DNA of 64,000 nucleotides from Raillietiella orientalis. Lineage: Eukaryota. The position numbers and the translations under genes are program-made. Numbering within the stretch: the stretch's first letter is position 1; each line of letters opens with the position of its first letter. The DNA lies in the NCBI GenBank assembly GCA_036172245.1, contig JAYWIR010000074.1, forward strand, positions 1-64,000, written 5' to 3'. The notes under the pieces are model-generated. The model did not search any database. It was given only the letters and a program-made list of their open reading frames with translations, and was not told where the DNA came from. Below are positions 1 through 22,719 of this stretch, piece by piece.

Positions 1-3000
1 GAGCGGAGCGATCTGCCGACTGTCATGAAGGTGACTCCGTTGCCGCCTTTTAAAGGCGTAGCGAAAGCAACGAACCCAGAGAACGCAGCGAAAATCCCGG
101 AGGTTTCCGCAACTACTGTGGCGGAAGACTCCGAAAATCGCGAAGGCGAATTAAAGGTTGTGGAGAGAAGGATAGAAAAATCTCCAAAAAAAGCTCCACA
201 ACATCCATCCCTGAGCTCTTCCAAAGGAGAAAGCAGTCGCAAAAATACGAATACACGCGCGGCTTGTGCCTCTTTCATGGAAAAAGCCAGCGCCTTTAAC
301 GCGTGCAGGTCCGTTCCTGTGACTGCAGAGAAGACCATTCCGGTGCAATCGGACGGATGCAAGCGCACGTCGATCGTGCGAGCATCAGACTCCGCAGAGG
401 AGTCCGATGGCTCCGCTGAACGACGCGTTACTCGCGCATGAGCAAGCGCCCGCAGGGCTGAAGCCCTGAGGCGTGACACACTCGCCGCGGAACGACGAGT
501 GCTCACCCAGGAACCCACAGGTTCTGCACCCGGAAAGGAGCACCCGATTACGTGCAGCACAGTTGAGGCCGGTGGCGACCGCGCCCTCCAGCCCGTCGTG
601 CTGCTTACTGCCCGCTCGCCGGGTGAGGCGAGCACCATGGCCTCGCTTTCCCAACCGCGATCAGGGCAATCGCGTCTTCTCGTCGTGTTGTTGTGACGTC
701 TTGGACCGTCAACGGGCTTCAACACGACGAGAAGAGGCAACTAGTGGCTCACGCTCTGCGCGCCTTCGACTTGACGCTCCTGCAGGAGATTCACAGCATT
801 TCCTGAGAGCAGGCTGCCTAAATCGAACGGCGCGCGGGCGGAACTCTACTTTATAGATGCGGCGTTGCACGTACGTGCGGCGTTGCTTTCCTCGTGCGAG
901 GAACTTTGGCGGGAGCGGTGCGCAGCGTTTGTTTCGACACGGGAGGCCGAGTGGGACAGCTTGTACTCAAGTGGTCCGACTCGATCGACCTTGTCGTAAC
1001 CAACGTGTACGCGCCGAGCGGTGCTGGACGATGGGCCGAAAGGATTGAGTTATACGGTACCCTTCAAAGCCAGTGGCTCACTCGATCTCACCCTACTGTG
1101 GCCCATCTCATTGCGGGGGACTTTAACGTCCACCTGCTTTCCGAGAATAGATCCCACAAAAGCGAAAAGTTCCTACCAAAAGAGATGTGCGCGTCCGTGC
1201 ACGCGTGCAACTTGTGCGCTAGCTACCCTGTTATGCTAGCAAATTCGGACCACGTATACCTTGAACAACACTTGCTCTCTCAAGTGGGTCGGAGAGGGCC
1301 CGTGCCGTCCGTGCTTTCAGACCACAACAAACTCGAGTTCGAGTTTCTCCCGCCAGGCAAGGGGCTTCCAAACTGTTTTTAGACGATGCCAGCAAACTGG
1401 CTGAGCCAACCGGAAGCGGCTGAGCGTCTTTGCCAGTACCTCCTTGGCTCTGCCATAAGTGAGCTCGAGGACTGCGACGATCTGAAAAGATCGGTCCGCG
1501 AGTTCTGCTGACGGTTTCACTTGCACCAGCTTCGTCGCGGCTTCGGAGAGGGCGTACTTAACAGCAGAGATTTTCTGCAGGCCCGCTCCTTTTCCAGGCG
1601 CGCGGACGTTGGTCCATTATCCGAGTACAAGGCCAAGGCCGAGCGCCAGGTCTGGCAGTCAGGGGCGACAGTTCTGCTCGACGACCAGGACCGGGAATGC
1701 TCGGCTCCAGCCGACGTGCGACGGATAGTCAGGCGCGATTACTCTTCTCTGTATGGAGAAGCACCGACGGAACGCAGCCTCTCCCGGCTGCTTCTGCCGA
1801 TTGATGCACCTGTTGTAGACGAGGAGGAACGCGCGCGTCTTGATGAGCCCTTCACGGCAGAGGAAATTTCCTCGGCCATCTCGGGGCTCAAGAGACGAAA
1901 AGCGCCAGGCGAAGATGGGCTCCCCGCGAAATTCTTTCAGTGTTTTGCGGCGGAGCTCATCCCCCTGGTGCTCCAACTCTCGTCGCTGATGCGAGACTCG
2001 GGCGATGTCCCCGCCTCGTTTCGCTCAGCGAAGGTGCGTCTACTGCCGAAAGGCGGAGATTTGCACCAACTGAACAGCTGGCGTCAGATCACATTAGTGA
2101 ATTCGGACGTCAAGTTGTTCTTAAAACTTTGGGTGGCGCGGATAAGTAGGATCGTGGTATAATTGGTAAGGTCGTAGCAGACGTACGCTGTTCCTGGGAG
2201 GTCCATGGACGCGAATCTCTTGTTCATCCGCACATCGCTGCAATTGCAGCATCGTGTGGCCGTAAATCGTCGTGCGGAAGCGACGCCTTCCAGCTCTCAC
2301 CGACGGAGGCGCGGGACGCAAAGGGAGACACAGGGAGCCTTGGCGGTTGCAGTCGATCTGCACAAAGCTTTCGCTTGAGTGAACCAAAAGCTTCTTCTTG
2401 AGCTTTTGCAACGTCTGGGTCTTCCGGCATCTCTGTTGCGTACTTGCGCTCCTGCTGACGCCACGCGATTACATCCATTGTTTTCAGTGGCTGTCGCGTG
2501 TACGGCGTGCCGGTACGACGAGGAATTAGGCAGGGTGAAAGCTTAAGCCCGCTGCTCTTCAGCATCTATTTTGAATTGGTGCTGGAGGCTTACAGGCTGA
2601 CGCTAGCCAACCTCCCGAGCTCCTTCCCAGGTACGCCGGCCGTAGCAGCCTATGCCGACGACCTGCTTCTCCTGTTGCCCATGTCCACCCCGGCGACATC
2701 GCTTGAAGACTTCTTTGAGTTGATTCGTCGCGGTGCGGGCGTGAGCGTTAACAGGAGTAAGTGTATGGTTGTTCCGGTGGGTGCGACGTGGGAGGTGCAG
2801 TCCGACTGGATCGGCCTGGGGATTCCCACGGGCAGGTAGGTACCTCAGGTACCTTGGCGTGCCGTTAAGCGACTTCTGCATTTCAGAAGCGTGGTCGGAC
2901 TGCCTTCGGAAGGCAGAGCGTGCACTTGGCCCGTTTCCAGGAGGCGAGTTCGTCTTGCCGGAACGGGCCTGCATCTGGAACACCTTCGTTGCCTTCTTCC

Positions 3001-4586
3001 TCCGCCCCCTGTTTTTTGTTTGTCCATCTCCCCAGGAAGTCAAAGTCTAAGCGCAGCGCCTTCTACGCAAAGCGTTGTGGGGCGCTGCAAGATCCCGTGT
3101 TAGACTTAAAGAGTTGGTGGCGCCGCGTCAGGATGCAGGCTTGGGCATCCTCGACTTAAACAGCATCGAACTGCAGGTGCAGTTGCGCATGCTGCGGCTC
3201 TGTGCCAAGCTGTGGTGTATGCCGTGGTGCTTACCCGCACGCCTTATACTGAGGCGCTGCACGGGAAGCGAGGGACTGCTTTCGTTGCTACCCCACTTTC
3301 GGCACACCAGAATAGGGTTTGTCTTCCCGCTCAGGCAGCTGTTTACACTGCTGGAAGCCCAAAGCTGGATCTCCTGCCTCCCCATGAACATGAATGCATG
3401 GCGGCAGGAATCTTTTTCATCGTGGGCAGCTTCCGAAGGAACTCGCCCGGAAGATCTTCGACGCCTGCGACTTCTCCTCAGTCATCAAATGGACGAAGTC
3501 ATGCAGGACAAGAAGTTGTTGGATCGTCTGGCCGCCACACCACTCGCCGCAGCGCAGTCTGCCCTCAGGGCAAGCAAGGACGGTTGCCTACCGGCGGAAT
3601 GGGAGTTCTTCTGCAAAATAGCGGGAGTCAGTAAGCTCCTCGGCAGCTAAACGACAAAGGAGCTGGTGCAAGCCGCCACACCTCGGAATCGGGCCAATTG
3701 CCTGCTTCGGTGGACCGAACATTTAAGTGTGCCCCCCGGAGAGATCGTGGTTCCCCCCGTTTGTTTGGACAGCTCCGTGTTTCCCCTTAAGTGGAAGCAA
3801 GATGTGCTGCTCTTTTTACATTGTGCATTACACTGTAATAGGCAGCGAAGCATCGTTTTAGGGGGAGCTGCTTTGACAAACTGTTTAAGGTGCGGAGAGA
3901 TCGAGTCACTTCCGCACCTTTTGCTGGACTGCGGTGACCTCCGGGAACTGTGGCGAAGGCTCACTTCGGCCATCATGCCACAAGTAGGCACTGCCATTGA
4001 TGTGCTGCGGCGCTTCTTCAGCAAAAATGGACTTTCGGTTGGCGCGATTGTCGCAACCATGTGTTGCGTTCGCGCCATCGTGAAGGCCCGCTACGCCCTG
4101 GAGTTGTCAGCGCAGAGAAGGGATGCTCACCTGCTTGCATCTCAATTCATGGAGAAGGCTTCAAGGTGGTCTCATCTTCGTGACAAGGTGAATGAGGACA
4201 TCACCGGCATACATCGCAGGTATACAGACCTTTGATAACGGCGTAATCCGGTGACCCCTGCGACCTCTTGCCCACCCATACCCCGTCCACGTTCGCTCGG
4301 TAAAATTTCCGGTGCCCATGCTTTTATCCCCGTGTCTTCCAGAGCGATCCCAAAGACCCTTATCCCGTCCTCCTTATTCATTGTTTTTATTTTATTTTGG
4401 TTTCTTTGTGTTCCCCGCCCCCAGACACCGTTCACAAAACTGTTACTCTGGCCTGCGTGCCAGCAATATTCTCTTGATTATTGTTCAGTCGTCGGTTGGG
4501 AGTTTGGTTCCCAACTGGTTTATTTTATAAAATTATTTTTTGGTTATGTTATATGGAATAAACGCTTCGGCGTGACCGCGTGAGAA
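1..4586 (+). mobile_element. Non-LTR retrotransposon family A, copy A1 (ORF1 3' part, decayed ORF2, 3' UTR; 5' end outside window)
   Basis: ORF fragments give NVYAP/AGDFN/SDH (894-1382), KAPGEDG (1521-2162), GIRQG/YADD (2498-2839) and CLRCGEIESLPHLLLDC (3666-4235). It is colinear with 55000-59595 and ends AATAAAcgcttcggcgtgaccgcgtgagaa. Confidence 0.93.
660..4235 (+). pseudogene. A1 ORF2 (APE-RT-CCHC) pseudogene
   Basis: Relative to the near-intact copy at 55666-59239, the start ATG reads ATC and there are several stops and frameshifts. Confidence 0.9.
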
Positions 4587-4598
4587 ATCTCTTGTGCT

Positions 4599-5959
4599 CG
4601 CCCAGTACAGCCGTGTTTTCGCGTCTCTCCGCGTCCGCGATCGAGCATCTTTGTGCGTGCGTTTTCGCTCGCACTTGTGTGTTTCTTGGAAGTGGACGAA
4701 GCAGCGTTGAACAACATGGCCACTTGTATGAATGGTATGGAGGAGACAGCCGTTGAATCCAATTCCATTGGAATGGAAGCGGCAGCATCCTCAATGACGG
4801 TTTCCTCGCCTTCGGTGAGGAGCTACGCCGCCGTCACCCCTTAGGAAGCAGGACCCTGCGATGCGCAGTTGCAGGATTATGTGGCATCCGGCTACATGCC
4901 CGCACTCCGTTATAAGGTCAGTGGGCCCCTTACCGGGAGGATCGGGCGTGAGCTCAACGATGAGCTCGTCCAGATCGGCGTCCGGGAGGATTAGCTCCTC
5001 GCCATCATGCCCGCGGGCAAGATGCAATACCAAAACATACGGTGCAAAAACGCAGCACTTGTGCAGCGTCTTCTCCGTACTTCGTTGACCATCGGTGGCC
5101 AGGAAGTCCTACCTACAGTGATGGACGATTGGTTTGTCGTCCAATTGTGCGACTTCGAGCCGGAGATCTCCGACCGCAATGTCGTAAGTGTGGTTTTGAA
5201 TTTCGCCACCGTGCACGCTCTGTGGAGGAGGCCAAATCCTCTAAAGGATTTTCCCTTTGTCCACATTGAACAAGTTTCCGCGCGGATGACCTTCACGCAC
5301 AGGTGTGTTGTGCCCGAGCAGATGCAGGTGAACTGCACGGTCGTTCATCTGTGGTTTAACGGGCGGACTTGCGCGTGCGAGCAGTGCAGCAAGGAGGGAC
5401 ACCCAATGAAGGAATGTCTCACCCCGAAATGCCGTTATTGCAAAGAAACCGGGCACGAATTAAAAAAGTGCCGGTCCTTGATAAGAAAAGGGCAGCAGTG
5501 GAAGTTCGTAACGTTCAAGAAACCAACGCACGAAAGGCCGCTGCCCCCAAGAAAAAACAGTGTACGCGGAGTCTTGGAAAAAGAGCCGAGCAATACGCGG
5601 CAATACAAAAGGCGTCACCGCCCGCAACGCCCCAAAAGGGAGAAATCGCGGCGGGGAAGCCAATTAAAAAGGGGCGCGAGGGTTCGATGCGTGCTGTGCG
5701 CGCCCTCGCTGCCGTACTGGGAAACACCTCTTCACGCCAGGAACCGGGAAATATCCGAAGAACCTCGGTAGGAAAGGTAGGCGAGCAAAAACATCGGCAT
5801 AGGGCGAAGACTTTCAGTTTCATCCCGCTGTCCCTTCCCAAAACGGCCATCCCCCAATCCAACGTAGGAGTTTCTGCGGAGGCTACGAAACTCGTAGCAA
5901 GCCCCGGCGCGCCGCGCAAAAGCACGCTGCATGCAGCCACCCCTTCACTGACTCGGCAA
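4599..5959 (+). mobile_element. Family A copy A2: 5' UTR and 5' part of ORF1, tandem downstream of A1
   Basis: Starts cgcccagtacagccgtgttttc. ORF1 from ~4716 has stops and knuckles CEQCSKEGHPMKEC and CRYCKETGHELKKC. Homologous to 37286-38052(-) and 54245-55000. Confidence 0.88.
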
Positions 5960-7740
5960 GTTTCCCTAAGTCCCACAAGAGGTGGGGTGAATTTATTCTC
6001 CATTTTTTAAAACACATTCATTCTACAATCACATTCATACTACATACCCACTTAACATCACTCTGGAGTCCTTGGGGATATTACAAGTTCTGCTTTCATG
6101 TTGGGTTTCCAGACGTTTGTTCCCGGGCGTCGTTTTCAATCCTCATCAGGAAGAATCGGTAGGTCCAGGCATGGATGCGACCACAATTCCTGATACCGAT
6201 CTCCTTCTTAATGAGTCCTTGAAAAAGCTCTATCGGAGGTAAGGCTCTCCTGGCTTTCCTCGTCTTCCACCACCGCATAAGTATGGCGGTGTTGGATAGG
6301 GCAATGGTCGTCCTCACCATGGGAATGTAACAGGGAACATTACCATCTTCCTGAAACATCGCGGCGAGGATCTCCATTGTGGAGCTGTTGATGAGTCCAA
6401 TGATCCTTTTCAGAATCAGTCAGTCGTGTAGCAATGTGGGACACGTCAAGACGTGAAGTCTCGTGTCGGTGTCGCCACATGCTGCGCCGTCTTGTTCTTC
6501 CCGTCTTCCTGTGAAGTGCTGAAGTCTTTACTCGCTTCGAATTCCTCCATGATAAAACATTAGTAGGTTGTCGTGAGTGTCCCGGGGAAGATCACTCTTC
6601 CAGAGCGTCGTTCAGATCGCTAACCGGTTGATCCGGTCACTCCCGTAGCTATCGGCGGCTTCTTGGAGGGCACTGATGTCTCGGTCCTCTTCTTTGATGA
6701 GTCTTCAGAGGTTTGATTTGGTAACCCTAGACCACGCGAGGTCGTTGTGGTTGATCTACACCTCGGAGGTCATGTGAGTCAACCTTCCTAACATCATCTG
6801 TATATAGCGAAGTATACGAGTGTGATGTAGGTAGCCTGCTCTTCTCCATCCCTGAATTCGATGCAGGGTAACTTTGGACCGCCGGTAGATCCAGCTTCTT
6901 GTGTCCTAAGAAACCGGAAGCATCCAAGAAATCACCAGGATGAACTCCTCTTGCCAGAGTTTGCTGCTTCGCGGCACGATCTTAATTTTGTGCTTACACA
7001 CCAGCCGTTGCTTCCTCCTCCAGGTTGGGTGGATGGATGTCCACTCTACTGCTCGGCCTAGCAGCGCAGTCTTCAGGCCTTTCGAGCTGCTCAGCAACAA
7101 TTCGTAGGCTTTATGCGCCGCATACGGCCATTCATCCCACTGGGTGGCTATGTCCAGGATGTGTCGCGTGTGTCCATAATTTCCATGGAATGTGTAGGCG
7201 ACTTCATCTCGGAACCGCCTTCTTCCCTGAAACGACACAGGGGTTTCAGACGAACTCTTGGGCGACAGTGGCCTTACAGTGTTTTTCGTTGCAGCTTCTC
7301 TACCTCTCTCGTGGTTTGTTTGTTCATTCTAGCGGAGGCCGCCCCAAAGAGTACCTTAGGAGGGAATACTCCGTTCCACAGGTTGGCCCATGGCTTCATC
7401 CCAAAGTCCAATCGAGTGTATTTTGCTGCTTCATTGGCCGTTTTCCCCAGTTTTTCCGTCCAGAGTTGCTTCGACGCGGAGTCGTCGCCTATGTAGACTC
7501 CCAGGTACTTGGCCGTGTCTACCGTACGGAATGCACTCCCTGTGAGGGCAGAGATATCCAGTATTCCGATGGGCAAAAGCTGGCTCTTGTGGGCATTGAT
7601 CTTCAAGCCCAGTCCATCTTTCATAAGGCTCACCACATCCAGGAACGTTTGTTGATACCTCTCTCCTGTTATGAAGAAGAGAAGATCGTCCGCGTAGGCT
7701 AGATAGGTGAGCTTCTAGTCGTCTACATTCACTTTGTTTA
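5960..7740 (-). mobile_element. Divergent 5'-truncated decayed LINE (family G), RT C-terminal half to 3' end
   Basis: The minus strand reads YLAYADDLL near 7690 and GLKINAHKSQ..AKYLGVYI (7274-7636). The 3' end has AATAAA then cccac-ctctt-gtggg. It is less GC-rich and unlike A-F. Confidence 0.8.
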
Positions 7741-9536
7741 AACGTTTGTTCTTCTCGACGAAGGAAAAGAGCGCCTTAGCGAGCATTTCCTGACTGCCGC
7801 GGAGGCTGGCTTTCGCCGCCTTTCAAGGGTGCAGCGAAAGCTGCGCCCCTGGCGGCTGGAGACGAAAGCCCGGAGACGTTCCTGAGGAACATTTCGGAAC
7901 GCACCGAGGAAACAGGAGGAGTGTGGACGGTTGTGGAAAAAGGGAGGAAGGTAATATCTCCCAAAAATCCTCCACAACCTCCATCCAAGAGCCTTTGCTA
8001 GGCACGGAACACTGGCGCGCTAAAGAAAATTTGCGCAAAGGTTCCCTCTGCCATTGCAAATGATACCGCCGCTACCGCTTATAGCGAGAAATTTGCGATC
8101 ACCGGTAGCGATGCCACGGTGACCGCGAAGAAGGAAGTGTCCGCGGTCTCATCCGTGAGTACTTCCGAATCGACACGGCAGGATAGACGCGAAGCGCCGG
8201 CTCTTCAATTGGACTCGGAAACGGAGTCTGATATCAATGCCGCACGTCGCATCACCCGCAAGGCAGCCGTAGCGTGCCGGGCTAAGGCCCTGAGGCGCTC
8301 AGCGCAGGCAGCGAAGGAGCGAGAGCTCACCTCGGACCGTCAGACGAAGCTACCCGGAGACGAGCACTCGAATTCGTGCAGCATCAGGGAGGACAGTGGC
8401 GACCGTGAGCTCCAGCCAGCAGTTCTGCTTACCAACCGCTCGCCGGTAAAAGCGGGCAAAAAGATGCCAACTTCCCAGCATTAATGCGGCAAAAAGCTTC
8501 TCGTCGCCTGTCCGTCGCGTGTTGGAACGTGAACGGACTACAGAACGACGAGAAGAGGCGATTGGTAGCCAACGCCCTGCGCTCCTTTGACCTCGCGCTC
8601 CTGCAGGATATACACGTAATTTCCGACGAGCAGGCTGCGGAAGTCAAGGATCGTGCAGGAGGAAAGTTACTTTGGCGGTGTAAAGACGCGCGTACGTGCG
8701 GCGTCGCGTTTCTCGTAAGAGGAAAAATTGCGGAAGCGGTGCGTAGTGTACGCTACGAAGACGACGTACGGGTGGGCCAGCTTGTTATCAAGTGGTCCGA
8801 GTCCATCGATCTCGTCGTGATGAACATTAGCTCGCCTAGTGGCTCGCGCTACCTCGAAGATAGAATTGCGCTATTCGAGGATGTGAAATGCCACTGGCTC
8901 AACAACTCTGGCTCCCAACTGGCGCACCTCGTCGCAGGCGACTTCAACGTCCACCTGCTCTCCGACGAATGGAGCTGCCCGAGGGAGCGAACGTCGGCCA
9001 TCGAAATGTGCACGTCAGTACGCACTCTCAATTTGATGGTCGGCGTGCCTGAGATGGAAAGGTCACCGGATCACATCTTCCTCGATGACAACCTGCACCC
9101 TCGTGTGGGAAGAAGAGGAAGATTGTCGTCCGCACTTCCTGATCATAACAGGTTGGATTTCGAGCCCCTTCCGCCAGGCAAGGGGTCTCCGCTGAAAAAC
9201 TGGAGGATGTCCGCGGACTGGCTTAGCCATCCGGAGGCGGCGGAGCATCTCCGTGAGTACCTCCGGACCTTTGTCATCCGCGAACTCGCGGACTGGGATC
9301 ATTTAAAAAGATCAGTCCGCGAGTTCTGCGAACGGTTTCTCTTGCACCGGCTCCCGCGAGGCTTTGGAGAAGGGGTCGCCAACAGCAGGACTTTCCTGCA
9401 GGCGCGCACCTTTTTCACACGTGCTGATGTCAGCCGGCTTGCGGAATACAAGGCGAGAGCCGAGTGCCAGGTCTGGCAGTCTGGAGCATCTTGCTTGCTC
9501 GACAAAAACGGCCTGAAGTGCTCGACTCCAGCCGGT
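7741..9536 (+). mobile_element. B-like element fragment (B'): ORF1 C-terminus plus ORF2 endonuclease and linker
   Basis: TAATG overlap at 8482-8486. ORF 8484 reads WNVNGLQNDEKRR..AGDFN, close to ORF 24642. It is cut at KCSTPAG by the 3' end of F1. Confidence 0.85.
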
Positions 9537-12373
9537 ATATATATATCACCCGGATTTGTCTGGGCATTTATTATACAAATTTTTATGTAATAAAAATTTC
9601 AAAATAAAGTCTTTGAAATTATTCTAAAACTCTTTGAGCAGAACAAGTGGTTCCGCCTGGCTGGACACACTTCCCGCTGCAAATTCACAGGTTGCAGAGA
9701 TCCTGCCCGGATGCGAAGGGGGAGGGAAACCTACAAACAAGAACAGAAAAAAGAAACATCAAAACCAAGGGGAGGGCAATGTTTTTTAGGAGGGAAGGGC
9801 TGGCATGGGATCACTGGTAGCTTCAAGAGGTACTCAGCATCCTGTTCAGGATACGGAGATGTGCCGGACGTAATGATATTAGCCGAGACCATCGGGAAGC
9901 CTTGTGAATGTTTAGGGCCGTCCATTGGATGGCGTTTCGGCTGTTATGACGTCTGTAGGACGCAGCCCATTTGGCCAGGCTTCCGCGTATGCAGCAGAGG
10001 ACTGCTACACACGCAGTTGCTGGCAGGGCGTCCTGCATGAAGACGCGACAGAAAGTGTCTTTGGGTCGCCCCCGGGAATGTTCAAAATCGTCGACAATCG
10101 ATCCCACATGGGTCGAAGGGCGACACACTCAATGATGAGGTGAAGGACGGTATCTCGTTCATCACACACTGCACAATTCGCAACCACAATTCCGGAAGTG
10201 CAATGGAAGAGGCGTGCTTTGCATAGGAGTCCCCAATGCAACACCAGCAGCGCCGTCACTTGCCATTCCAAGGAGAATGTGCAAGAATCCCAGCACACTG
10301 GGGGCCACTTCACCTTTTCCGGAGGTATGCCGAGTAGCTTGCCCCAGCGCACAATTCCTTTAGACGTGAAGGTCAGGGTTGCAGCGTCCCATAACTCCCG
10401 AGTCGTAGACGCCTTTAATGGTTTTCTCCTGCCTCGGATGAGGCAGGACACTTCCCACAATGCTCGTTCGTTGCCGTTCCCGATGTTCAAAAGGGAGGAC
10501 AGCACGGGAGCAAGGGGGTCAATGAAGCCCACAGCAGTTTCCGCGGATTGTTGATTATCTCCTTCAGGGGCTGTAGAGCGCTCGGTCCTCGACGGGGACA
10601 GTGGTACTCCGCTTCGCTCGTGCCATTGATCTGGGCCCAAGCGTAAACTGACTCCTGAAGCCAGGCAGTGCACTTCGCGGGGCGGCAGGAGATCCAGGAA
10701 TTCTCCCTCATCAGGACGACCATCTGGAGCAGATGAAAGCCAAAGCTGTAATTGAGGCTGCGCGCGTACGCAATGAGGATCGAGGACAATCCGTCGCAGC
10801 CGGTCGCTCTTCTGGCGAGGAGCCGTGCGGGTTCACACCATGATGTCAACCATAAGCTAGCCGCAAAAGATAGCTCCCTAAAGTTTATGTGTTTTTGTAT
10901 GCGCTCCATCGTCAAGAGGCTCAAAGCACCGTCCCTGCGTGGAGCACACAAGTCTATTAATCGGAATCGTGACCTCGCTGTTCCCCAAAGGGCAGTTCTG
11001 AGGAGGGCCTTGGTCCGTCTCTTTATAATTGGCGGTGCGGGGCCCACAAAAAGTAACGGACGAAGGAGGGGGGCCGCGAAAGCGTTCCACACCGCTGCCT
11101 GTTCCTGCAAGTCAAACTTGCCGTTTCGGAAGGGTCCGATCGCCAGCTCTACCTTATGAAGACGGTCGGAACAGGCATCTGCAACGCAGAAGTCCCCCAA
11201 CGGAATGCCAAGGTACTTCAGGCACCTGCCCGTGGGGATCCCCAAGCGGATCCAGTCCGGCCGTCCAGCTCACGCCGTATTTCTTGAAAGAAGTGGTGAT
11301 TTTGCCACAATTGTGGATTTCTCTCTGTTCACCCGGAGGCCCGTCCCTCGGCGCAGCAGCTTGAAGAAATCTTCTAGCGCCTCCGCTGGGGTGGACCCGG
11401 GGAGCAGGAGCAGAAGATCATCGGCATAGGCCGACACGGCAGGCGTGCCGGGACACAAGCTCAGCAGGGTTGCCAGAGTCATCCTGTATGCCCTCAGCAC
11501 CAACTGGGAGTAGATGCTGAAGAGCAAGGGGCTCAGACTGTCACCCTGCCTTATGCCTCGACGAACCGGAACGCCGTACACATGTCGGCCGCTAAAAGCG
11601 ATGTTTATGATTGCGAAGCGCCAGCAGGAGCGCAGGTAAGACCGGAAGACTGCCGGGGATCCCAAACGTTCCAGGACTTCCAGGAGTTCCTGGTCGACGC
11701 AGTCGAATGCTATACGCAGATCGACTGCGACCGCAAGTGCTCCTGGCGCGGCTCTTCCATGAAGGGCGTCCCCTCCCTGGTCAGAGGAGAATCCAGGATT
11801 CTCTTGACCTCCCTGCGCTTCGCTTTGTAGCAACTGCCACCATGTACTGGCGAGGAACAGGTTGGGCTCCATGGATCGTTCTGGAACAGCGTAAGTCTGC
11901 TCCAGACTCACCACGGATTCCGCCACCCGTCCCAGTCGCTCAGCCCAATGTTTGGCCAGCGACTTTGCATCCGCATTCACTATGGTGATATGAGGCCAGT
12001 TGTCTACGTTGCGGGTGTCTCCTTGTTTAGGAAGAAAACGTACTTTGGCTGACCGGAACGACATGGGAACGTCCCCTTGTTCTCGGATCAGCGTGCATAG
12101 TTAGTGCACCAGGGGTACCAGCTACGCTGCGAAGAGTTGGTAAAACTCCGCGGGCAGGCCGTCTTCCCCTGCTGCCTTGCGTTTTTTCTGTTTTTCAATG
12201 GCAGAAATAATCTCCGCCATTGAGAAAGGCTCCTGTATTCGTTCTCGATCCTCCTGCTTCAATGCATGGGCGTCCTGCGGCAGCAATCGCTGCGCAAAGG
12301 CGCGCTCTGTGGTTCGCAGCGCGTAAAAAGCGAAGTAGAAATTCCGCAAGATGCGGCAAACCTGCGCCGGTGC
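9537..12373 (-). mobile_element. Family F copy F1: RT, C-terminus and 3' UTR
   Basis: ORFs 12122-12349, 11270-12064 (GIRQGDSLSPLLF, YADD), 10487-11245 and 10005-10673 (CAVCDERDTVLHLIIEC). The 3' end is AATAAAtgcccagacaaatccgggtga(ta)n. Confidence 0.88.
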
Positions 12374-14972
12374 CGCACGCGTTTTTGGTCAGCTCCCGTG
12401 AGCGAAGCCAAAACTAGGTGTTATGTGGATTGGAAGTGCGGCCGTTGGAAGCCAGAAATGACTGAAGAAGCCGCAGTACCTGCGACGGGAGACATGAGGC
12501 CCACGTCTCCACAACCTATGGAGGTGGGGTCATGCCCCACCACAAAATCAGCCCCCGCCACCCCGGCGAGGGCGTGGAACAAGGTGGCCGCGGCGGCTCC
12601 GCCGGACGTGGCCGCCAAAGTGCAGGCCTACATAAAGGAGGGCTACAACCCAGCCCTCCTTTACAAGGTAGGAAATCTTTATCCACCGCTTACAACGCGG
12701 AAATCTGAAAACGCCATCAGTAGGATGGGAATCTCTGACGAGGAGATCCTTTGCTTCTCGATTCGGAGCGGCGGGCAGTTCGCGGAGCTGATCTGCAAAG
12801 ATGCAGCGCTCACACACAAACTGCTCTGCACGCCCGTTCCGTTCGAAGGGCGCAATCTCCTCCCACACACGGTGAATCACTCTATGGTGATCCACCTCAC
12901 GGGTACAACGGTGCCGATGACCGATGAAGCCATCCGCACTGGAATCAACAAATTCGCGGAGATATACGCGATGTGGTCAAAGCCCAACGCCTTTACTTAT
13001 CGAGGCGCATTCAGTGGGCGAGTGGCCGCGCGCGCAACTCTCCGCGAAAACAAAGAACTTCCCCACAAGCTTGAAGTCAACAACGAGCTCGTCGACCTCT
13101 GGTACGTAAGGAAGGAAAAATACTGTGGGCTGTGCAACACATTCAGGCATCTTAAAAGGAGATGCCCGGATGCCACATGCCCAAACTGCGGCGCGAAGGG
13201 CAACACTAGTGCTGTGTGCCCGAAAAACGACGAGACAACGCCTTCAGCCCCTTCGACAAATGAGGGGAAGAAGGCAGTAAACCAAAAAACACGCGACCAA
13301 CAACCGACCTAAGAAGAAGTCGTGCACAAGGAGCAGGAGCCTCAAAAGGAGAATTCTGAGCCAACTGCCGACGAGGAAAACTGGAAAGTCGTTTCGAACA
13401 AAAAAGCAAAAGAAACACACACAAAAAAAACAAAAATACCTACAAAAAATGACAAATATCAGAACGCAAGCGTTCCCAAAAAACCCGCGGTCGGCAAACC
13501 AAAAATTTCGCCGCGCGAGTCCATAAACGAATGCCGCGTTACAATCGAGCGCGTTCCGTCGATCGAGCGTCGATCGGCGAACGCGACTCCCGCAACCGTC
13601 GCGAACGCCGCGGAACCGCCGCAGGAATCCTGCGACAAACACGCGAGCAGCAGCAACGAGAAAAACTTCGCGAAGGCGGCGGAGAAACTCGCGGCCACCT
13701 TAATGCGGCCGCCTAAGGCTGCAAAGAAGGCCGTCAGACGTCCGACGGAAGTTAAGGGCCCGGAAACTTCCGGGTCCGAGGCGGAAGCCAGAAACCCTCC
13801 CACCGTCGCCCTTCCGAAGAGGAAGGCGGGCCGGAAGTCGTGCAACCCCATCCGCGTCGCTCCCCCTCAGGCTGAAGAGGAGGAGATGCGCTCGCATAGC
13901 GAGGAGGCGATGTCCGCGAGGTCGAAGGATCCCTCCATCGACAGCATCCGGTCGGACCTTCCTATAAACCTCAGTCCGGCTGCAGACGTTCCGGTCGTTG
14001 CCGAAACGCCACCACCGCAGATGGACAACGACCTGCCGCCTCCCGAACAGGAGGCGGCAATACACACGCCACCACCATCACTAGTATGATGCGTGGAATC
14101 GCCTCTTGCCGGCAGCTGCGTATAGCCTGTTGGAATGTCAACGGGCTGCGTAGCGAAAGCAAGAGGCGTAGCGTGGCCGACACCCAGCGACCTTTCAATC
14201 TGGCACTACTTCAAGAGGTGCATGCCCTCAGAGCAGAGGACGTCCAGGAAATCGAGAGTCTACAAGGGGGAACGCTACTTTGGCGTGGTGGAGGAGACCA
14301 CTCCCGCGGAGTGGCCTTCCTGCTGAAGCAAACCGTCGCCAATGCGGTACGCAGTGCACAGTTCGACGAGGACGGTCGAGTCGGACAACTTGTGCTTAAG
14401 TGGTCCGAATCGATCAACCTCGTAGTCACGAACCTGTACACGCCCTGCACCAGCCACAGGCGCGCAGAACGCACTGCGTTCTTCGAAGCCCTGCGGCTAG
14501 ACTGGCTGGCTGAAGCAGGCGTGCGGCGGGCGCATCTGATAGCAGGAGACTTCAAAGTCCGCCTGCTGTCGAAAGCGCCCGACATACGAGTGCAATTGGT
14601 CAACGAGTTGTGTGCGGCTATGAACACACGCAACTTGTTGGCCGATGGAGCCGGGGCTAGAAGCGGAATCCACCAAGAGTTCCTCGATAACCACATGTGT
14701 ACGCGGGTGGGGACTCGAGGAGCAATTGCGTCGGAGCTGTCCGATCACCCTCGGCTAGTGATCGACATTCATCCGCGCCACAGAGGTCCACCCTCCGAAG
14801 CGTTGCGCCTGCCGGGGAACTGGTTGCGACTTGCAGGAGCGCGCGAACATCTGCGCGCATTCCTGCGTAGTTACGAACTGCAAACTCTCGCTGATTGGGA
14901 CAAAATAAAACGCTAATTCCGAGAGTACTGTGACCAGTATCCCCTCCATCAACTTCCTCCAGGTTTCGGCGA
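12374..14972 (+). mobile_element. Family F copy F2: 5' UTR, ORF1 and endonuclease
   Basis: ORF1 ~12458-14089 has one internal TAA (13310) and knuckles CGLCNTFRHLKRRC / CPNCGAKGNTSAVC. TGATG overlap at 14087-14091; EN ORF 14086-14916. Confidence 0.9.
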
Positions 14973-16617
14973 TGCCACCCGGATATGCCAGGACGTTTAT
15001 TAAAAACATTTCGACGGTCAATACAGAACGTGGAACAAAGTCCCACTGAAGGTAACGCAATACCGGAACTGCTGGGACACCGGGACGCAGCCCGGTGTGG
15101 CTATCCTCGGCAGCGGTGGGGCATGAAAGAGAAAACAAAAATAAAATAAAAGAGAAAAACAAACCACAAAAAAAAGTATGGAGGGCCGGGAAGGGATCAC
15201 AGAAAACTACTAGGAGCGCGCATCCTTTGCAGGATGCCTTCTAGTTCCATTTTCAGCTTTCCTAAATGGAGCCATTGGGTAGCTCTCTGCAGGAAGCGCG
15301 AAGCATACTCGATGACGTTCCTCACGATGCAGTCTTCATCTTCGGCATCACTCCAGGCCGCCACGATACCACGAATGCAGCAACATGCTGCCTGGGCTGC
15401 GGCTGGACTGAGAGCGTTCCGCACGAAGACAAGACTGAAGATACATTCAACATTGCCACCAAATCCGGTATCCGGAGGGCCGTTTTCAGACGATCCCAAA
15501 GAATCCGGACGGCAGGGCATTCAACTAAGAGGTGGGGGAGCGACTCCCGCTCCCCACACCTGGCACACGCAGGATTTACTCTTCCCCGCGTCCAGTGCAA
15601 GCGGCGCGCGTTGCAGGGTAGACTCCAATGCAGCCACAGAAGCGCCGATTCTTGCCACTTCAAGGGGAGAATCCTGGATCCAAGAAGAACCGGGGGCCAC
15701 TTCAGGTCATCCAATCGAATGCCGAGCAGCTCGCCCCATCTTCTTGATCCACGCGGCTGGAGACTAGGGGTCGTTGCATCTGTCAACTCTCCCATGGTCC
15801 AGCCGCTGATCATCTTCTCTCTGCCTGCGATACGGCAGCAGACTTGCCACCTTGGCTTCCGGCTTCCGTGAAGCGCCCTTTGGAGGAAGGGCATCGCCGT
15901 AACAAGGGGTGTGCCTTCCGCCCACGTGCAACTCGGTGGAAATTCAAGAATTTCACGGAGAGTGCGGCGGGCGTATAAGCCGACTAGCAGGCAGTTCATC
16001 CGGTCTTCGCACCTTTGGTTCTGCTTAGCCCAGGTGCCAGCAGTCTCTTCCAGCCAAGCGGAGGAGTTGGCAGGGCCACAAACCATCCGGTCGTTTTCCT
16101 TTGCCAGGGTTGCCATGCGGCCGAGCATTAGACCGCATCTTCGAATCTTCCGGCGAGGGCACAGAAGAAACGATGCGAGTCCTTCGCAGCGGGACACACG
16201 TCTGGCCAGGAGGGGGGCCGGAATGTACCAAGCAGTGCTCCACATCTTCGCTGCGATGGCGAGGGTCCACCATCGCAGCTGGATTTCCACGCGCTCCAGC
16301 GTCAGGATGCTGAGACAGCCGTCCCGACGCGCAGCGCACAAGTCCTTCAAAGGGACTCGGGGCCTCCCCTTGCCTCAAAGAGCTATGCGGAGGAGGTTTT
16401 TAGTCCCCTTTTTTGATTCCACGGGGGGGATCAAACAAGAAGCAAGGGGCGGAGGATGTGGGCCGCGAAGGCGTTCCAAACCGCGGCCCGTTCCGGGAAG
16501 TGAAACTTGCCTTCCAGGAACGGGCCGATCGCCGTCTCGACTTTTTGGAGGCAGCTGGACCACGCTTCCGCAGGCGAGAAGTCCCCCAACGGCACACCGA
16601 GGTACTTGATGCACCTC
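14973..16617 (-). mobile_element. Family D copy D1: ORF2 C-terminus and 3' UTR
   Basis: ORF 15322-16350 ends with CARCGERESLPHLLVEC. The 3' end is AATAAAcgtcctggcatatccgggtggca. Near-identical to 45623-47270(+). Confidence 0.88.
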
Positions 16618-19600
16618 ACGGACGACTTCGCCCTGTTCAACGTAAGTCCGGTTCGCCGATGCAGCAGGTCGAAGAACTCCTTGACCGCCGCAGCCGGGGT
16701 GGACATAGGGAGCAGCAGCAGAAGGTCGTCCGCGTATGCTGAAACGGCCGGCGTACCGGCACAGTCGTGCGGCAGATGCGCCAGAGTTCCCCTGTACGCT
16801 CTCAGTACCAACTCAAAGTAGGTACTGAAGAGCAAGGGGCTCAGGCTGTCTCTCTGCCGGTTCCCACGCCGCACCGGCACGCCGTGCACGGTCTGCCCGC
16901 TGAAAGTAACATTGATGAGCGCGTCGCGCCAGCAGGAGCGCAGATAGGCCACTAATGAGTCCAAGAAGCCCAAGCGTTCCAGAAGCTCTAGAAGGAGATT
17001 CTGGTCGACGCAATCGAATACTTTCCGCAAGTCGATTGCGACCGCAAGGGCTCCCTCCCCCTCCCGACCATCCAACCCCCTGCCGGCGCACGCACCGGAA
17101 TGCCGGCTGCACACCAAGCTCCTTTCATGTTGGAGGTCTAGCCAGGTGGAAGCGTGGAACAGGTTCGCCTCAATGCTTCGCTTGGGAACAGGATATGTCT
17201 GTTCCGAGCTGATGACGATGTTGACAACGCGTCCCAAACGCTCTGCCCACATCTTGGCTATCAACTTGGCTGCCGAATTCACTATTGTGATCGGACGCCA
17301 GTTGTTCATGCTCCTCAGATCTCCTTTTTTAGGGAGGATCCGCACCTTTGCCGAACGAAACGAGGCGGGAACGTCACATGTTTCGCGTATCAGCAAGGTG
17401 TGTTGCTGTACCAGGGGGGTAAGCTCAGCCGCGAAAGTTTGATAAAACTCCGCGGGCAGGTGGTCCTCTCATGGAGCCTTTCGCCTCTTGAGCTTTCCGA
17501 TGGCCGAGAGGATCTCGTCCATCGTGAAAGGCTCGTCGATGGTCTTTGTCTGCTCCTCCCCGATCGCTGGAGCGCCTTCCGGAAGCAGGATTCGTGATAC
17601 GTTCCTCTCCGGAGGTGCCCTGGCATACAGGGAGGAGTAGTAACTCCGCAGCAGGTCGCGGATTTGGGCAGGTGCCGAGTGCTCCTGGCCCTGATCGTCC
17701 AGTAAGCTGGCCGATCCGGACTGCCAGGCTTGCCTCTCGGATCCCGCTTTGTATTTTGCCAGCCTGCGGATGTCGTGGGTCATGGCGTAACGACCGGCCT
17801 GCAGGTAGGCTTGTTCGTTACGGACCCCGGTCCCAAAACCCGTAGGTAGGCGGTGCAGAAGGAACTGGTCGCAGAACTGCAGGACCGACCGCTTGAAGCG
17901 GTCCCAATCCTGGAGTTTCCGCAGCCTGAAGCTCCGTATGAACGTGCGCTGATGTTCCGCCGCGTCCGGGAGCTCCAGCCAGTCCCCTGGGAGACGCAAC
18001 GCTCACGAGGGGGGCCCCTGTCGCGCGGATGGATCTCGAGGACCATCGGGCGATGGTCCGACAGCTCGCACGGTAACTTGCGGCGCCTGCCCAAGTGAGG
18101 GCACAGGTGCTCGTGAAGAAACACGTGGTCAATGCTGTCTTCCATCCCCGGTTAACTGTCCAACAATTTACAGGTGTGCACCTCCATGCACACCTCGTTG
18201 ACCAGGTCACGCTCGAAATTCTGCCCATCTGGTTTCAGGCGAACGTTGAAATCGCCTGCAACCAGATGGGCATCCCGCACGCCTGCTTCGGTCAGCCAGT
18301 CTCGCCGAAGGGCAAAGAAAGAGTCTTTCCTCGCCCTCCTGGTCATCAGGTCCGCGCCGCTCGGTGCGCACACGTTCGTGACGATCAGATCGATCGAGTT
18401 GGACCACCTGAGAGTCAGCTGGGCGACACGACCGTGATCGTCGAACCCCACGCCCCGAGCCGCGGCCTCGACGGCTGGCCGAAGCAGGTAGGCGACACCG
18501 CAACTTTTCGCTCTCCCACACCTGTACCACAGCCGCCCTCCGGAGATCCGTTCGATCTCTTGCGCTTGTTCTGCAGAGATCACGTGGATCTTCTGCAGCA
18601 GCGCAAGGTCGTAGGACTCCAGAAGGGCGGCCATGTCTGGTCTCCTACCGGTGTCTGTCATGCCGTTCACGTTCCAAACGGCGATGCGGAGACGACGGCG
18701 GGAGGAGGTTCCCGGCATTACTGCTGGGAAGATTAAGGTGTGATGGAGCCCTCCTCTTGCGAGGCAGGCGGGATGTCCATGGGGGTTTCGGCCTTCTCAG
18801 GTAACTGAGCCACCTGTTCGGCCTTTACTCCCTCCATCCCCTCCGTGTCCGCGCGTGAAAGTCTCTCGGGCGATGGGTCCCGAGATTTTCCCACGCTCAT
18901 GGCACCCTCGCTTGCGGAAGCCATCTCTTCCCCTTCGACGGGGGAGACGAGCTTCCTTGGCTTTGTGGACTTAAGTCCGGCCTTCTTGCGCGGTGCCGTG
19001 GAAACGGAGGCTGCGCTTCCGGTCTTAACCTCGGGGTCGGAAGTGGGGGACTCCTGAAGGGAGGCCGGACGCCTTACATCCTTCTTGCCAGCCTTGGAGG
19101 GTTCTGGCTGCAACGAGGCTTCCAGCTCCTCCGCGGCTCGCGCGAAGGCTACGTCATCGATGGTGGTGTCGATGACGGACGCCGCCGCCAGCTCGCTCCC
19201 CTTGCTGTTGACAGAGTCAACAGAGGGGTTGTCGTCGGTAGCGACGAGTTCTTTTTCGAGCGGTGAGGAATACGCTCGACGACAACGCTGCATTCTTTAA
19301 TTTGCTCGCTTACCTGCTGTTTTTTCTGGCGGTACGCGAGCTTTTTCTCCATCCTCCTCTCCTTCTTTGATTTTTTGGCCAAAGATACCTGCCACTTAGG
19401 CTCCCTGCTTGTTCCCTCGACTTGTTCGGCGTTGTTCGCCGGGGTCTCGGGTGCAGTCTGGGCCTTGGGCGCGGGTAACACAGCCTTCGCGGCAGCTTTC
19501 GCCGCCAGCCTTTTCTGCAGAAGCGGGGCACGTTTTTTAAGGATTCTTTTAAAAACCACCCGCACTGCTGCTTTTAGGCACACCTCCCACGTGTGTCCCA

Positions 19601-20430
19601 TGGCTCCGCATACTTGGCACTGTATATTGGTACACCTCTTTTTAAGGTGGCCCGACGTATTGCAGAAGCCACAGTATTTCGGCTTCCCCACATACCAGAA
19701 GTCGACGGTTTCGCCTTCCACCACCAGTTTGTGGGGAAGAGTGCAGCCCTCCCGAACGGTTACGCGCGCAGCAGTGAGGCCGTGTTGCAGCCCCGTGTAG
19801 TCCTCGAAAGGACTTACTTTCGTCCACTGCGCTTGGACCGTTCCGAACTGTTTCAAAGCGGCGCGAACCTCTTCTTTGCGCATTCGCGCAGTAACGCCTA
19901 ACAGGTGGAGCACTACGCTGCGGTCCGCCGTAGTGAGGAGCCTGCGCGTCTCCATCACAAGAAGATTTTAAGCAGTCTTTGGGCCAGCTCTGCATGTTTG
20001 CAGATGACCTCAACGTACTGACCCCGCTGCGAATGGTCATACCGCTGAGCTCCTCCTCTTTCACATCGAGAGCGCGCATGCCTTTCGAAAATGCGCGCGC
20101 GCTCTCTAAAGAATATAAATTGCATACCTTGTAGAACAATGAGGTGTTGTACCCCTCCTCTACATTGGCCGACAATTCCGCCGCTGCTGCAGGCGATGGC
20201 GCCGCCACAACGGCGCTCCACGCCCGCGCTGCAGCAGGGACCGATTCTGTGGGGGAGGATGCCCCCACCTCTGTCCCCTCTTGGGACGGCGTTGCCGCTG
20301 CCCCCTGGCCATCCCTGATGTTCGCGTCAGGCATCGCGGCCTGATCGACCTCCGAAACACACGACGCTCGCTCTGAAGGAGACTTCCTGGCACGAGGAGC
20401 ACCGAGAAAACACGTCTACCGTGGAGGACG
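16618..20430 (-). mobile_element. Family E copy E1: 5' UTR, ORF1, EN and RT (fused to D1)
   Basis: 5' end cgtcctccacggtagacgtgttttc. ORF1 20334-18718 is broken; EN 18152-18718; RT 16431-17396. Homologous to E2. Confidence 0.88.
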
Positions 20431-22632
20431 CGAGGCGTTCTACCGTGTAAACCAGAAGCTGCTTTTGGAGCTTGTGGAACGCCTTGGGTTCCCGGCGCAA
20501 CTCCTGCTGATATTTGCGCGCGTGCTGGCGCCACGCGCTAGACTGCATCACTTTCAGCGGCTGCCGCGTGTATGGTATTCCCGTTCGTAGGAGCATCCGA
20601 CAGGGCGACAGCTTAAGCTCGTTGCTATAGAGCATCTTGTTTGAGTTCGTGCTAAGAGCATACAGGCTGACGCTGTCTCACTTGCGAAGCTCCTGCACGG
20701 GAACGCCTGCCGTGGCCGCCTACGCTGATGACCTGCTTCTTCTGCACCCCATGTCCACCTCGGCGTCCAGTGTCGAGGATTTCTTCGACCTGATTCGTCG
20801 GGGAGCGGGCGTGAGCGTGAACAGACAGAGAAGCGCGGTCGTTCCTGTGGGTACGTCGTGGGAGGGGCAGTCCGACTGGATCCGCCTGGGGATCCCTACG
20901 GGCGGGTACTTTAAGTACCTTGGCGTTTCGTTGGGCGCTTTCGGCGCAGGCAAAGCGTGGGCGGACTGTCCTCGGAAAGCAGATTTGGCCATCAGACCGT
21001 TCTTTAACGGCAAGTTCACCTTGCAGGAACGGGCGACTATTTAGAACACCTTTGTGGCCCCCCTCCTCCTTCCCCTGTTTTTTGTTTTGGAGTCCCCATA
21101 TGCGGCGAAACAGCGGGCTAAACGCCTGCTCAGGAACGCTCTCTGGGGTCCGGCGAGATCCAGGTTCCGCCATAAAGATTTGTTAGCTCCGCGTTGGGAT
21201 GCTGTTTTGGGTTTACTGACAATGGAGCGAATCGGACTGCAGGTGCAGTTCCGAATGCTGGCACTGTGTGCCCAGCTATGGACATCAATTCTGTGTGTGT
21301 CAGCTGGCATTCTCCTGCGGAGATGCGCCGGAAGCGGAGGATTTCTCTCGCTTTTGCCGGGCAGTCAATACAATAAGCGGGGTTTCGGGTTTCCATTGCG
21401 GCAGTTGACCGCACTTCTGGAAGCTCACTCGTGGAACTCCTGCCGCCCAATGAACTTTGAAGCTTGGCAACAGGAGTCTGTTGAATCCTGGGCGGCGTTC
21501 CAAGGAATACGCCCTGAAGATCTTCGCTCCCTGCGTCAATTTTTTCCACGATCCTTGGAAGAAGTACTGCAGGACGAGGTGAAGTTTTCTACCCTGGTTG
21601 CCACGCCTCTTACCGCAGCGCTGTCTGCCCTCAGGGCAAGAAACGACAGTCACCAACCGGCGAGGTGGGAGGTTTCCTGCACGATAGCGGCAAAAACCAA
21701 AATCCTTGGCGCCTAGAAGACCAGTAAGTTGGCCGACGCCGCCACTCCTCGTATTACTGCAAAGGGACTCCTCCTGTGGGCAGAGGAACTTGCTGCCCCC
21801 CCCGAAGAACTTGTAGTCCCTTGACAGTGTATTGACAGTTCGCTGCTTCCCCTTGCTTGGAAACAAGCCGTGCTGCTTTTCGTTCACTGGGGCTTTCAGT
21901 GCAACGAGCGTTGGCATCCTGACTCCGGGGGACTTGCGTCTGCGAACTGCGTTCGGTGCGGATCGACGGAGTCGATTCCGTACCTACATCTGGACTGCGG
22001 TGTCCTACAAGGACTGTGGCGTAGGCTGGCAACAGCACTAATGCATCCCGTGGACACCGCAAGAGACTTGCTGCGACGATTCTTCACGCCGAGCGGGCTG
22101 TCACTAAGCGCAAGGATTGCAACCATCGGTTGCATACGCGCGATAGTTTCCGTCCGCCAGGCGTTGGTAATCAACGGACAACACCAAGAGGTAATCAGCA
22201 AAGCATCCTTCTACATGGGAGCATCCGCTAGATGGCCTCATTTGACGGAGGAGACCAAAAGGAATCTCGCCGCAATACACCGCCGGTTTACACACGCTCA
22301 GCAGCGGCCAACCCGGTGATCATTGCTTTACCCTCCATAAACTATTTTTGTATTTTCTTTTTACACCCGCGTCCCCATAGGCTCCGGAACATTTTAGGTG
22401 CTCTTCGTTTAAATCCCCGTGAGTACGGAGCCTAACCAAAAACCTGTTACCCTTCCCTCCAGTTTTTGATTTTTGTTTGTTTCCCCTCATTCCTCCCACG
22501 CTGCGAGCGGTTTGTTTACCAGGGCTGCGTGCCGGTAATTTTTCTATGTTCTTTGTCGTTCTGTTGGTTGAGGACATTGTCCCTGACTAGTTTATTATTA
22601 TTAATAAACGCCCCGGCGTGACCGGGTGATAA
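20431..22632 (+). mobile_element. Family B copy B1: RT from the KAFD motif to the 3' end
   Basis: YADD in 20637-21044 and CVRCGSTES in 21870-22319. Closely similar to 26735-28922 and ends AATAAAcgccccggcgtgaccgggtgataa. Confidence 0.9.
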
Positions 22633-22640
22633 ATTTCAAT

Positions 22641-22659
22641 CGAGTGCGGACGTGTTTTT
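22641..22659 (+). promoter_or_regulatory. Conserved 5'-terminal motif CG-N(n)-GACGTGTTTT (representative; putative internal promoter)
   Basis: The same motif or a close variant lies within ~25 bp of every intact 5' end. The role is inferred. Confidence 0.55.
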
Positions 22660-22719
22660 CTTCGCTCTCGTCTCCGTGCTTTCATCCGCTTCATCTTGGC
22701 GTCGTACATTTTGACGACG

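Follow-up and report, generated by a model that had tools for sequence, protein, structure and literature searches.

A family of L1-like retrotransposons in Raillietiella orientalis that probably inserts at a fixed position in the endonuclease genes of sibling LINEs

We analyzed a 64,000-nucleotide stretch of DNA from Raillietiella orientalis (positions 1 to 64,000 of contig JAYWIR010000074.1 in assembly GCA_036172245.1; hereafter, the window), which holds copies of a long interspersed nuclear element (LINE) that we call family A. Family A is very probably a sequence-specific retrotransposon without long terminal repeats (non-LTR), of the apurinic/apyrimidinic endonuclease (APE) type, L1-like and ~5.95 kb long, that lands at a fixed position in the endonuclease gene of two other LINE families, C and E. 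A 12-mer, ATCTCCTGCGCT, lies at this position. The family-A termini available (n = 5) come from 4 copies, all within this one 64-kb window; 5 of 5 adjoin either the 12-mer or a duplication headed by the 12-mer, and they comprise two 3′ ends and three 5′ ends, one of the latter truncated and the others full-length. The copies and the sequences beside them are as follows.

1 to 4586, plus strand: A1, a family-A LINE of which the 3′ 4.6 kb is present, starting midway through open reading frame (ORF) 1 and running to the 3′ end, degenerate and with stops in the endonuclease (based on identity to A4 and the tblastn map).
4557 to 4586, plus strand: the A1 3′ terminus, with AATAAA, a short hairpin, and the tail TGAGAA, without poly(A) (based on a 27-nt motif with 3 mismatches, and on the fold).
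4587 to 4598, plus strand: the 12-mer atctcttgtgct between A1 and A2, a duplication copy with two C>T differences from ATCTCCTGCGCT.
4599 to 5959, plus strand: A2 part 1, with a full-length 5′ end, the 5′ untranslated region (UTR), and the N-terminal half of ORF1.
5960 to 7768, minus strand: X, an unrelated LINE, 5′-truncated and AT-richer, inside A2 ORF1 (based on a reverse-transcriptase frame with YADD).
7769 to 9535, plus strand: A2 part 2, with the remaining ORF1 and ORF2 to residue ~364, where it is cut by the minus-strand 3′ end of a G-family element.
37289 to 38052, minus strand: A3, the initial 764 nt of a full-length copy of family A.
38053 to 38064, minus strand: an exact 12-mer ATCTCCTGCGCT in host C2, adjoining the A3 5′ end.
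54179 to 54228, plus strand: the left copy of the A4 target-site duplication, 50 bp, in host E4, headed by an exact 12-mer at 54179-54190.
54229 to 59595, plus strand: A4, a 5′-truncated family-A copy with an ORF1 remnant and an ORF2 (endonuclease and reverse transcriptase) that has one frameshift.
59596 to 59645, plus strand: the right copy of the A4 target-site duplication, in host E4, headed by an exact 12-mer at 59596-59607.

Three junctions between family A and the 12-mer had been reported in a first-pass annotation, and each can be read directly in the window. The A1 3′ end (...AATAAACGCTTCGGCGTGACCGCGTGAGAA, to 4586) is followed by atctcttgtgct at 4587-4598 and then by the A2 5′ end (CGCCCAGTACAGCCGTGTTTTCGCGTCT..., from 4599); as that annotation had stated, the 12-mer alone parts the two copies, the spacer being a version with two mismatches. 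The A4 3′ end at 59595 is followed by ATCTCCTGCGCT at 59596-59607 within an E-family element, and the A3 5′ end at 38052 (minus strand) adjoins the reverse complement of the 12-mer at 38053-38064 within a C-family element. A fourth junction, missed earlier, is the exact 12-mer at 54179-54190 that heads the left copy of the A4 duplication. Exact matches to ATCTCCTGCGCT occur three times on both strands of the window, compared with 0.01 expected, and 0 of 100 shuffled sequences reached three; all three matches (3/3) are at family-A termini. When up to two mismatches are allowed, the window contains 14 matches compared with 6.9 expected, so only exact or near-exact copies at the homologous endonuclease position are meaningful.

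The 12-mer had also been read as antisense to AQEI codons, and this holds: its reverse complement is GCG CAG GAG AT in the host frame, within ..SAEQAQEIERI.., and the target lies ~ten residues past the catalytic LQE motif. Family A is antisense to the host ORF2 in both of the readable hosts (2/2). Its 3′ ends are joined without poly(A) directly 5′ of the 12-mer (ATCTCCTGCGCT at A4, and the two-difference copy atctcttgtgct at A1). Both 3′ junctions fall directly before ATCTC.., and the full-length 5′ junctions (A3 and A2) fall directly after ..GCGCT or ..GTGCT, from which we infer that a full-length insertion would duplicate exactly 12 bp. In full-length insertions, the 12-mer constitutes the target-site duplication and is not necessarily the whole recognition site; site-specific insertion accompanied by a 12-bp duplication is, in our judgment, highly likely.

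A4, the 5′-truncated copy, has a longer duplication: based on an alignment of the six relevant stretches, 54179-54228 and 59596-59645 match over 50 bp with 1 mismatch. On its 5′ side, ~9-17 nt of filler precede family-A sequence, which begins at about 54238; its 3′ end is ...CCGGGTGAGAA. The filler at 54229-54245 (CACTCCTGCGCGCT..) contains CTCCTGCGC, which equals 9 bases of the target 12-mer and may record slippage of a template or primer there. One 383-nt public contig (run X1) contains a family-A 3′ end, the 12-mer, and then TGTTCTGCAGAGATCACG, an E-type flank; this contig may be A4 itself, and we give it little weight.

Homologous copies of the 12-mer also occur in uninterrupted host elements, as follows.

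18555 to 18566, plus strand: empty target in the uninterrupted host E1, ATCTCTTGCGCT, 1 mismatch, antisense to AQEI codons.
32893 to 32904, plus strand: empty target in the uninterrupted host C1, ATCTCCCGGGCT, 2 mismatches, codons AREI.

E1 runs straight through the site (..CCGTTCG ATCTCTTGCGCT TGTTCTGCAGAGATCAC..); E4 matches E1 to 54228, continues into A4, and then presents those 50 bases again (59596-59645). C1 carries ATCTCCCGGGCT at the homologous place. The presence of the 12-mer at both kinds of termini would also suit a terminal repeat belonging to the element, a reading that the first-pass annotation had raised against its own. However, E1 and C1 hold the 12-mer as ordinary host codons, and the A4 duplication reaches 38 bp further into host sequence. 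The empty sites refute the terminal repeat, to which we assign next to no probability, and the 12-mer is host sequence at the target of family A.

The involvement of two different host families, which had been taken to argue for true specificity, is borne out: the C and E endonucleases share 55-62% protein identity and their flanks differ, and the insertions in C2 and E4 are therefore independent. The same nucleotide position was used independently in the C2 and E4 hosts and in the tandem, with the 3′ junction seen twice and the 5′ junction seen twice. We extracted the homologous 12 bases from all 11 endonuclease copies of the window. Both perfect sites (C2 and E4) are occupied (2/2), and the 9 unoccupied copies have one mismatch (E1), two mismatches (C1), or more; among these, the homologous site is ATCTCCTGGCCG in F2 and ATTTCCTGGACG in D1 and D2. 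The A lineage’s own sites are ATTTCGGCAGCC in A4 (near-identical in A1), ACTTCCGCAGCC in A2, and ATTTCGGCTGCC in B2, with ≥6 mismatches. Family A keeps the upstream CGTTCG at its own site yet differs from the 12-mer at 6 of 12 positions; thus, bases within the 12-mer must be read, and family A is immune to itself.

The full length of ~5.95 kb is the sum of the first 600 nt of A3 and of A4 from 54245. A4 is the best family-A copy, and it is 94.3% identical to A1 over 4606 nt (A4 55007-59607). Its ORF1 remnant has two CX2CX4HX4C knuckles (Pfam zf-CCHC, E = 0.001, under the cut-off of that model), and its ORF2 matches Pfam RVT_1 (E = 1.2e-20, 74.5 bits, cut-off 29.6). Among solved structures, the best match to the family-A reverse transcriptase is human L1 ORF2p (E = 5e-46), with R2 proteins far weaker. 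The N-terminal endonuclease aligns to the human L1 endonuclease (E = 2.5e-6) and carries the motifs WNVNG, LQE, NVYAP, and GDF(N/T); GDFN is intact in A1, and A4 reads GDFT. Pfam Exo_endo_phos gave no family-A match at E ≤ 0.01. In a comparison with PDB chains, a weak test that uses sequence only, L1 endonuclease chains were present and R1Bm and TRAS1 endonuclease chains were absent among the matches up to E = 1; on that comparison, the endonuclease and reverse transcriptase are not nearest to R1, TRAS, or SART, as members of the R1 clade would be. A4 combines 5′ truncation with a 50-bp target-site duplication, as expected of a LINE. The 3′ poly(A) typical of L1 proper is absent, as both family-A 3′ ends terminate in ..GGGTGAGAA, with the target following immediately.

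Relatives of family A are sparse. In a protein search covering 1.84 billion representatives, the close matches were P0001 (64%) and P0089, a 132-aa fragment (61%), all others being at ≤39%; a further match, P0026, is merely a gene model assembled from repeated LINE pieces. A metagenome scan with an alignment of A4 and P0001 identified 4 loci, all distant (24-36% identity) and hence uninformative about flanks, and a search of the ESM Atlas returned generic clusters of endonucleases and reverse transcriptases.

Under the standard model of target-primed reverse transcription, the endonuclease of the element would nick the host sense strand at 5′-..GCGCAGGAGAT/CGAACG..-3′, a predicted GAT/CGA nick in the duplex context ..CGTTCGATCTCCTGCGCTTG.., and the 3′ OH would prime complementary DNA synthesis exactly at the element’s terminal ..CCGGGTGAGAA. 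The conserved AATAAA-hairpin-UGA(N)AA 3′ terminus, common to all families of the window, would probably set the point of initiation. A cut in the second strand 12 bp downstream would then produce the 12-bp target-site duplication, and 5′ truncation, as in A4, would produce the aberrant 50-bp duplication with filler. After a full-length insertion, an intact 12-mer would remain on either side, and a second A-type element could enter one of these copies, giving the order A1-12-mer-A2.

The target might instead be chosen mainly by pairing between RNA and DNA, if a read-through transcript tail with a few bases of the 12-mer annealed to the nicked target; annealing of a read-through tail has reportedly been proposed for R1Bm. 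Specificity would then be inherited with the flank of the donor, and the AATAAA that lies 24 nt before the element end would allow read-through. Such pairing would fit the lack of poly(A) at any junction despite AATAAA, which calls for precise internal initiation, as well as the occupation of A’s site by A2 with a B-like endonuclease and the identical 27-nt 3′ end of families A and B. However, a nick at the exact phosphodiester still requires protein, and at least three families with different sites and nearly the same 3′ ends coexist; moreover, the data contain no read-through RNA, and no RNA run is among the listed runs with the element. We therefore consider pairing unlikely as the main determinant of the target, and we favor recognition of the site by the family-A endonuclease.

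Successive insertion into a regenerated target had been put forward as the explanation of the A1-A2 tandem, and our analysis supports it: sequential re-insertion is the likely origin of the tandem. B1-B2 is an independent parallel to its architecture. In this second tandem (20283-28931), the B1 3′ end is followed by ATTTCAATC and then by a full-length B2.

22633 to 22641, plus strand: the 9-mer ATTTCAATC, which alone separates the 3′ end of B1 from the 5′ end of B2.
28923 to 28931, plus strand: the second copy of the 9-mer, after the B2 3′ end, completing the target-site duplication of B2 in host F1.

B2 (22642-28922) is flanked on both sides by this 9-bp duplication, the upstream copy of which immediately follows the B1 3′ end. 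Family B targets the catalytic (G/V)DFN codons of the F-family endonuclease on their sense strand; an empty site in F2 (42019-42027, minus strand) reads ..GTA GAT TTC AAT CGC.., or V-D-F-N-R, with the catalytic DFN in sense.

A2 belongs to a mosaic lineage and not to the A1/A4 subfamily, with an A-like 5′ region (5′ UTR and ORF1 N-terminus; part 1 is 81% identical to A3 and 78% identical to A4) and a B-like ORF2. It also bears two later insertions, X and G, and A1 has none in 4.6 kb. Because of the divergence between A1 and A2 and the later insertions in A2, simple duplication is excluded and two events are economical. Neither element is a recent copy of the other, and the full structure would be host-12-A1-12-A2-12-host.

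LINE reverse transcriptases can jump templates. A single event, in which the enzyme, on reaching the 5′ end of an A2 template, switched to the 3′ end of an A1 template carrying read-through target, would account for a spacer of exactly the duplication length. We regard such a jump as very unlikely, given that the A1 and A2 lineages differ by 20-30% in nucleotides, that their apparent ages are unequal (X and G in A2, none in the 4.6 kb of A1), and that the B1-B2 pair would require the same rare event.

Rearrangement within the array was also weighed. Two inverted segmental pairs, 11703-16619 with 45624-50539 and 28923-34002 with 36570-42027, are each ~93% identical; the ends of both pairs coincide with insertion sites, and single elements are mosaics in which identity is 93% and then 72-74%. 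These mosaics and inverted copies look like gene conversion or ectopic recombination inside the array. In A3, the 3′ part of the element is missing together with 382 bp of host C2, and because of this loss, the mosaic identities, and the inverted segmental copies, we regard the array as reshuffled. Ectopic recombination, gene conversion, or mis-assembly could then have produced the tandem itself, with the 12-mer incidental. Consistent with an assembly break, the window begins exactly at the family-A position where X interrupts A2, and no public contig spans the tandem junction. Nevertheless, an overlap of 12 bp (9 bp in the B tandem) does not suffice for homologous exchange or an assembly join, the sequence and length of the spacer are precisely as predicted from the three other junctions, and the same rule is seen in two unrelated tandems. 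We judge rearrangement or mis-assembly a highly improbable source of the tandem and retain sequential re-insertion.

Several points weigh against site-specific insertion by family A and against the sequential origin of the tandem. The sample is small (5 termini from 4 copies in a single 64-kb window), and every family-A copy in it is dead, A1 having stops and A4 a frameshift. The window appears to be scrambled by recombination or gene conversion, such that any single junction may have been rearranged. The host upstream of A1 and the A2 3′ end either lie beyond the window or have been lost. Among the X1 contigs on 3600-5600 (n = 17), 0 are ≥99% alike, and no listed piece bridges 4586-4599. Lastly, the A2 endonuclease is 73% identical to that of B2 compared with 62% to that of A4, yet A2 occupies A’s site and B2 is elsewhere. 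This last point has one of three explanations: specificity depends on few residues, A2 moved in trans, or RNA-target pairing contributes. Mobilization of A2 in trans is conceivable because A and B share the identical 27-nt 3′ end.

Based on self-comparison and on tblastn analysis with family-A proteins, the entire 64 kb consists of related two-ORF element fragments on both strands, mutually nested; the GC content is 51-61%, and no host gene is visible. With related ORF1 and ORF2 fragments on both strands across its 64 kb, the window is a LINE-only nested cluster, a feature of Zepp/ZeppL. Within this cluster, every family with readable ends uses a fixed site in its kin: C, E, and G each have another such site in sibling LINEs, and H and X probably do as well.

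Insertions of family E fall antisense on the K-A/V-F-D codons of reverse-transcriptase motif A in three hosts: a G-type element (50529-50545, where E4 meets it at ~50540), B1 (20420-20432, adjoined by the E1 5′ end), and B2 (26347-26358). The insertion at the KAFD codons of B2 is an internally deleted mini-E (26359-26734, antisense), in which ~125 nt of the E 5′ end are joined to ~245 nt of the E 3′ end. It is flanked by the duplication CAAGGCGTTCGA, 12 bp or longer (26347-26358 and 26735-26746), and looks like a non-autonomous derivative.

Family G inserts antisense at ORF2 residue ~364 in two hosts (9535/9536 and 63720/63721), and its 3′ ends (9530-9545 and 63715-63730) carry the tails TATATATATA and AAAAA. 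In a G-type fragment (about 12376), a family-D 5′ end was also observed, 8 bp from this residue-~364 position.

A 16-bp duplication, CGCTCCSGAATCTCCA (29250-29272 and 34783-34798), stands on either side of C1 (29266-34782, minus strand), whose host is split into F1 (28923-29265) and a piece at 34783-36560. A B-like target for family C, ATTTCAATGG, was considered and dropped, as the 16-bp duplication of C1 shows that TTTCAA is C’s own tail. For family H, the position is antisense on D's G-F-G-D codons; H was seen there twice, but in a duplicated segment. X, inside A2 ORF1, has no duplication and is located at the exact family-A position at which the window and A1 begin (A4 55006/55007); either this ORF1 position is the specific site of X and the contig ends at such a junction, or the agreement is a coincidence.

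All families share the 5′ start ..GACGTGTTTT.. and the 3′ end AATAAA-hairpin-CCGGGTGA(N)AA. The 3′ hairpin has 5-7 bp and ends in CCGGG (for example, 59566-59595, 22603-22632, 50541-50570 on the minus strand, and 47242-47268). The E hairpin, with a GAAA loop, folds well above shuffled sequences (z = -4.3); the A hairpin is not significantly stabler than shuffled sequences (z = -0.4 to -0.9), its sole support being its conserved position across families. The sites that we propose for each family are as follows.

Family A: antisense AQEI codons in the endonuclease.
Family B: sense DFN codons in the endonuclease.
Family C: antisense, at residue ~285.
Family E: antisense KAFD codons (reverse-transcriptase motif A).
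Family G: antisense, at residue ~364.
Family H: antisense GFGD codons.
Element X: ORF1 of family A.

From these sites we tentatively suggest, with somewhat less than even confidence, that at least six sister families each have an endonuclease specific for a different conserved codon block in the ORF2 (or ORF1) of the others, and that lineages escape by synonymous or conservative changes. Mutual hyper-parasitism of this kind could by itself build gene-free, LINE-only islands and would constitute the nucleotide-level mechanism of Zepp-type, possibly centromeric, clusters. The escape changes at A’s own site may point to an arms race in which transposons oppose one another and not the host. Site-specific LINEs are prized as natural “safe-harbor” integrators and as models of AP-type endonuclease specificity; here, related endonucleases that are 45-73% identical appear to read quite different sites, and they form a compact natural series for mapping the determinants of specificity.

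Family A resembles human L1 in domain order, and human L1 ORF2p is the best solved match for both its reverse transcriptase and its endonuclease, at an identity of only ~30%. Human L1 has a loose nicking preference for TTTT/AA and makes use of poly(A), whereas family A uses one site defined by 12 bp, without poly(A).

Among site-specific LINEs, the Tx1 group (L1 clade) has among its members Tx1L, whose insertion target is the DNA transposon Tx1D, and the R1 clade includes R1, TRAS, and SART. In the parts of PMC4640811 that we covered, transposons are among the recorded targets of specific LINEs, and Tx1 and R1 are APE-type specific clades. Like these elements, family A combines an APE endonuclease and a reverse transcriptase with an ORF1 that has CCHC knuckles; it uses one fixed site in a multicopy sequence, in fixed orientation and with a defined target-site duplication, and it forms precise 3′ junctions without long poly(A), with tandems possible. 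Family A differs in its target, which is a protein-coding motif in LINEs that are its siblings within one lineage and not ribosomal DNA, small nuclear RNA genes, telomeres, microsatellites, or a DNA transposon; furthermore, several sister families here each hit a different site in one another. The literature searched, which was thin on subscription journals, Repbase Reports, and the primary Zepp papers, contained no description of LINEs directed to coding motifs of their siblings.

In the passages covered, Zepp and ZeppL, L1-clade LINEs of green algae (centromeric clusters of Chlorella, Coccomyxa, and Chlamydomonas), nest into existing copies and form one cluster per chromosome (PMC8226300, PMC3446292, 10.1101/2025.03.28.645958, 10.1101/2024.02.27.582245); the clusters of nested elements have a GC content above that of the genome (PMC3446292). 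These passages give no nucleotide-level target site for Zepp or ZeppL. The likeness to the window is one of architecture, namely L1-like LINEs that occur almost exclusively inside clusters of their own kind. In contrast to the single family per cluster described in those passages, the window holds at least six families with exact sites and duplications, and its elements lack poly(A) and carry AATAAA. A landing pad that is a conserved coding motif of kin offers a testable mechanism for a long-standing puzzle, the accumulation of Zepp and ZeppL only in their own clusters. Compared with all of these systems, the mechanism class of family A is ordinary, comprising site-specific target-primed reverse transcription, re-insertion, and a duplication of defined length; what is unusual is the target chosen and the network of multiple families.

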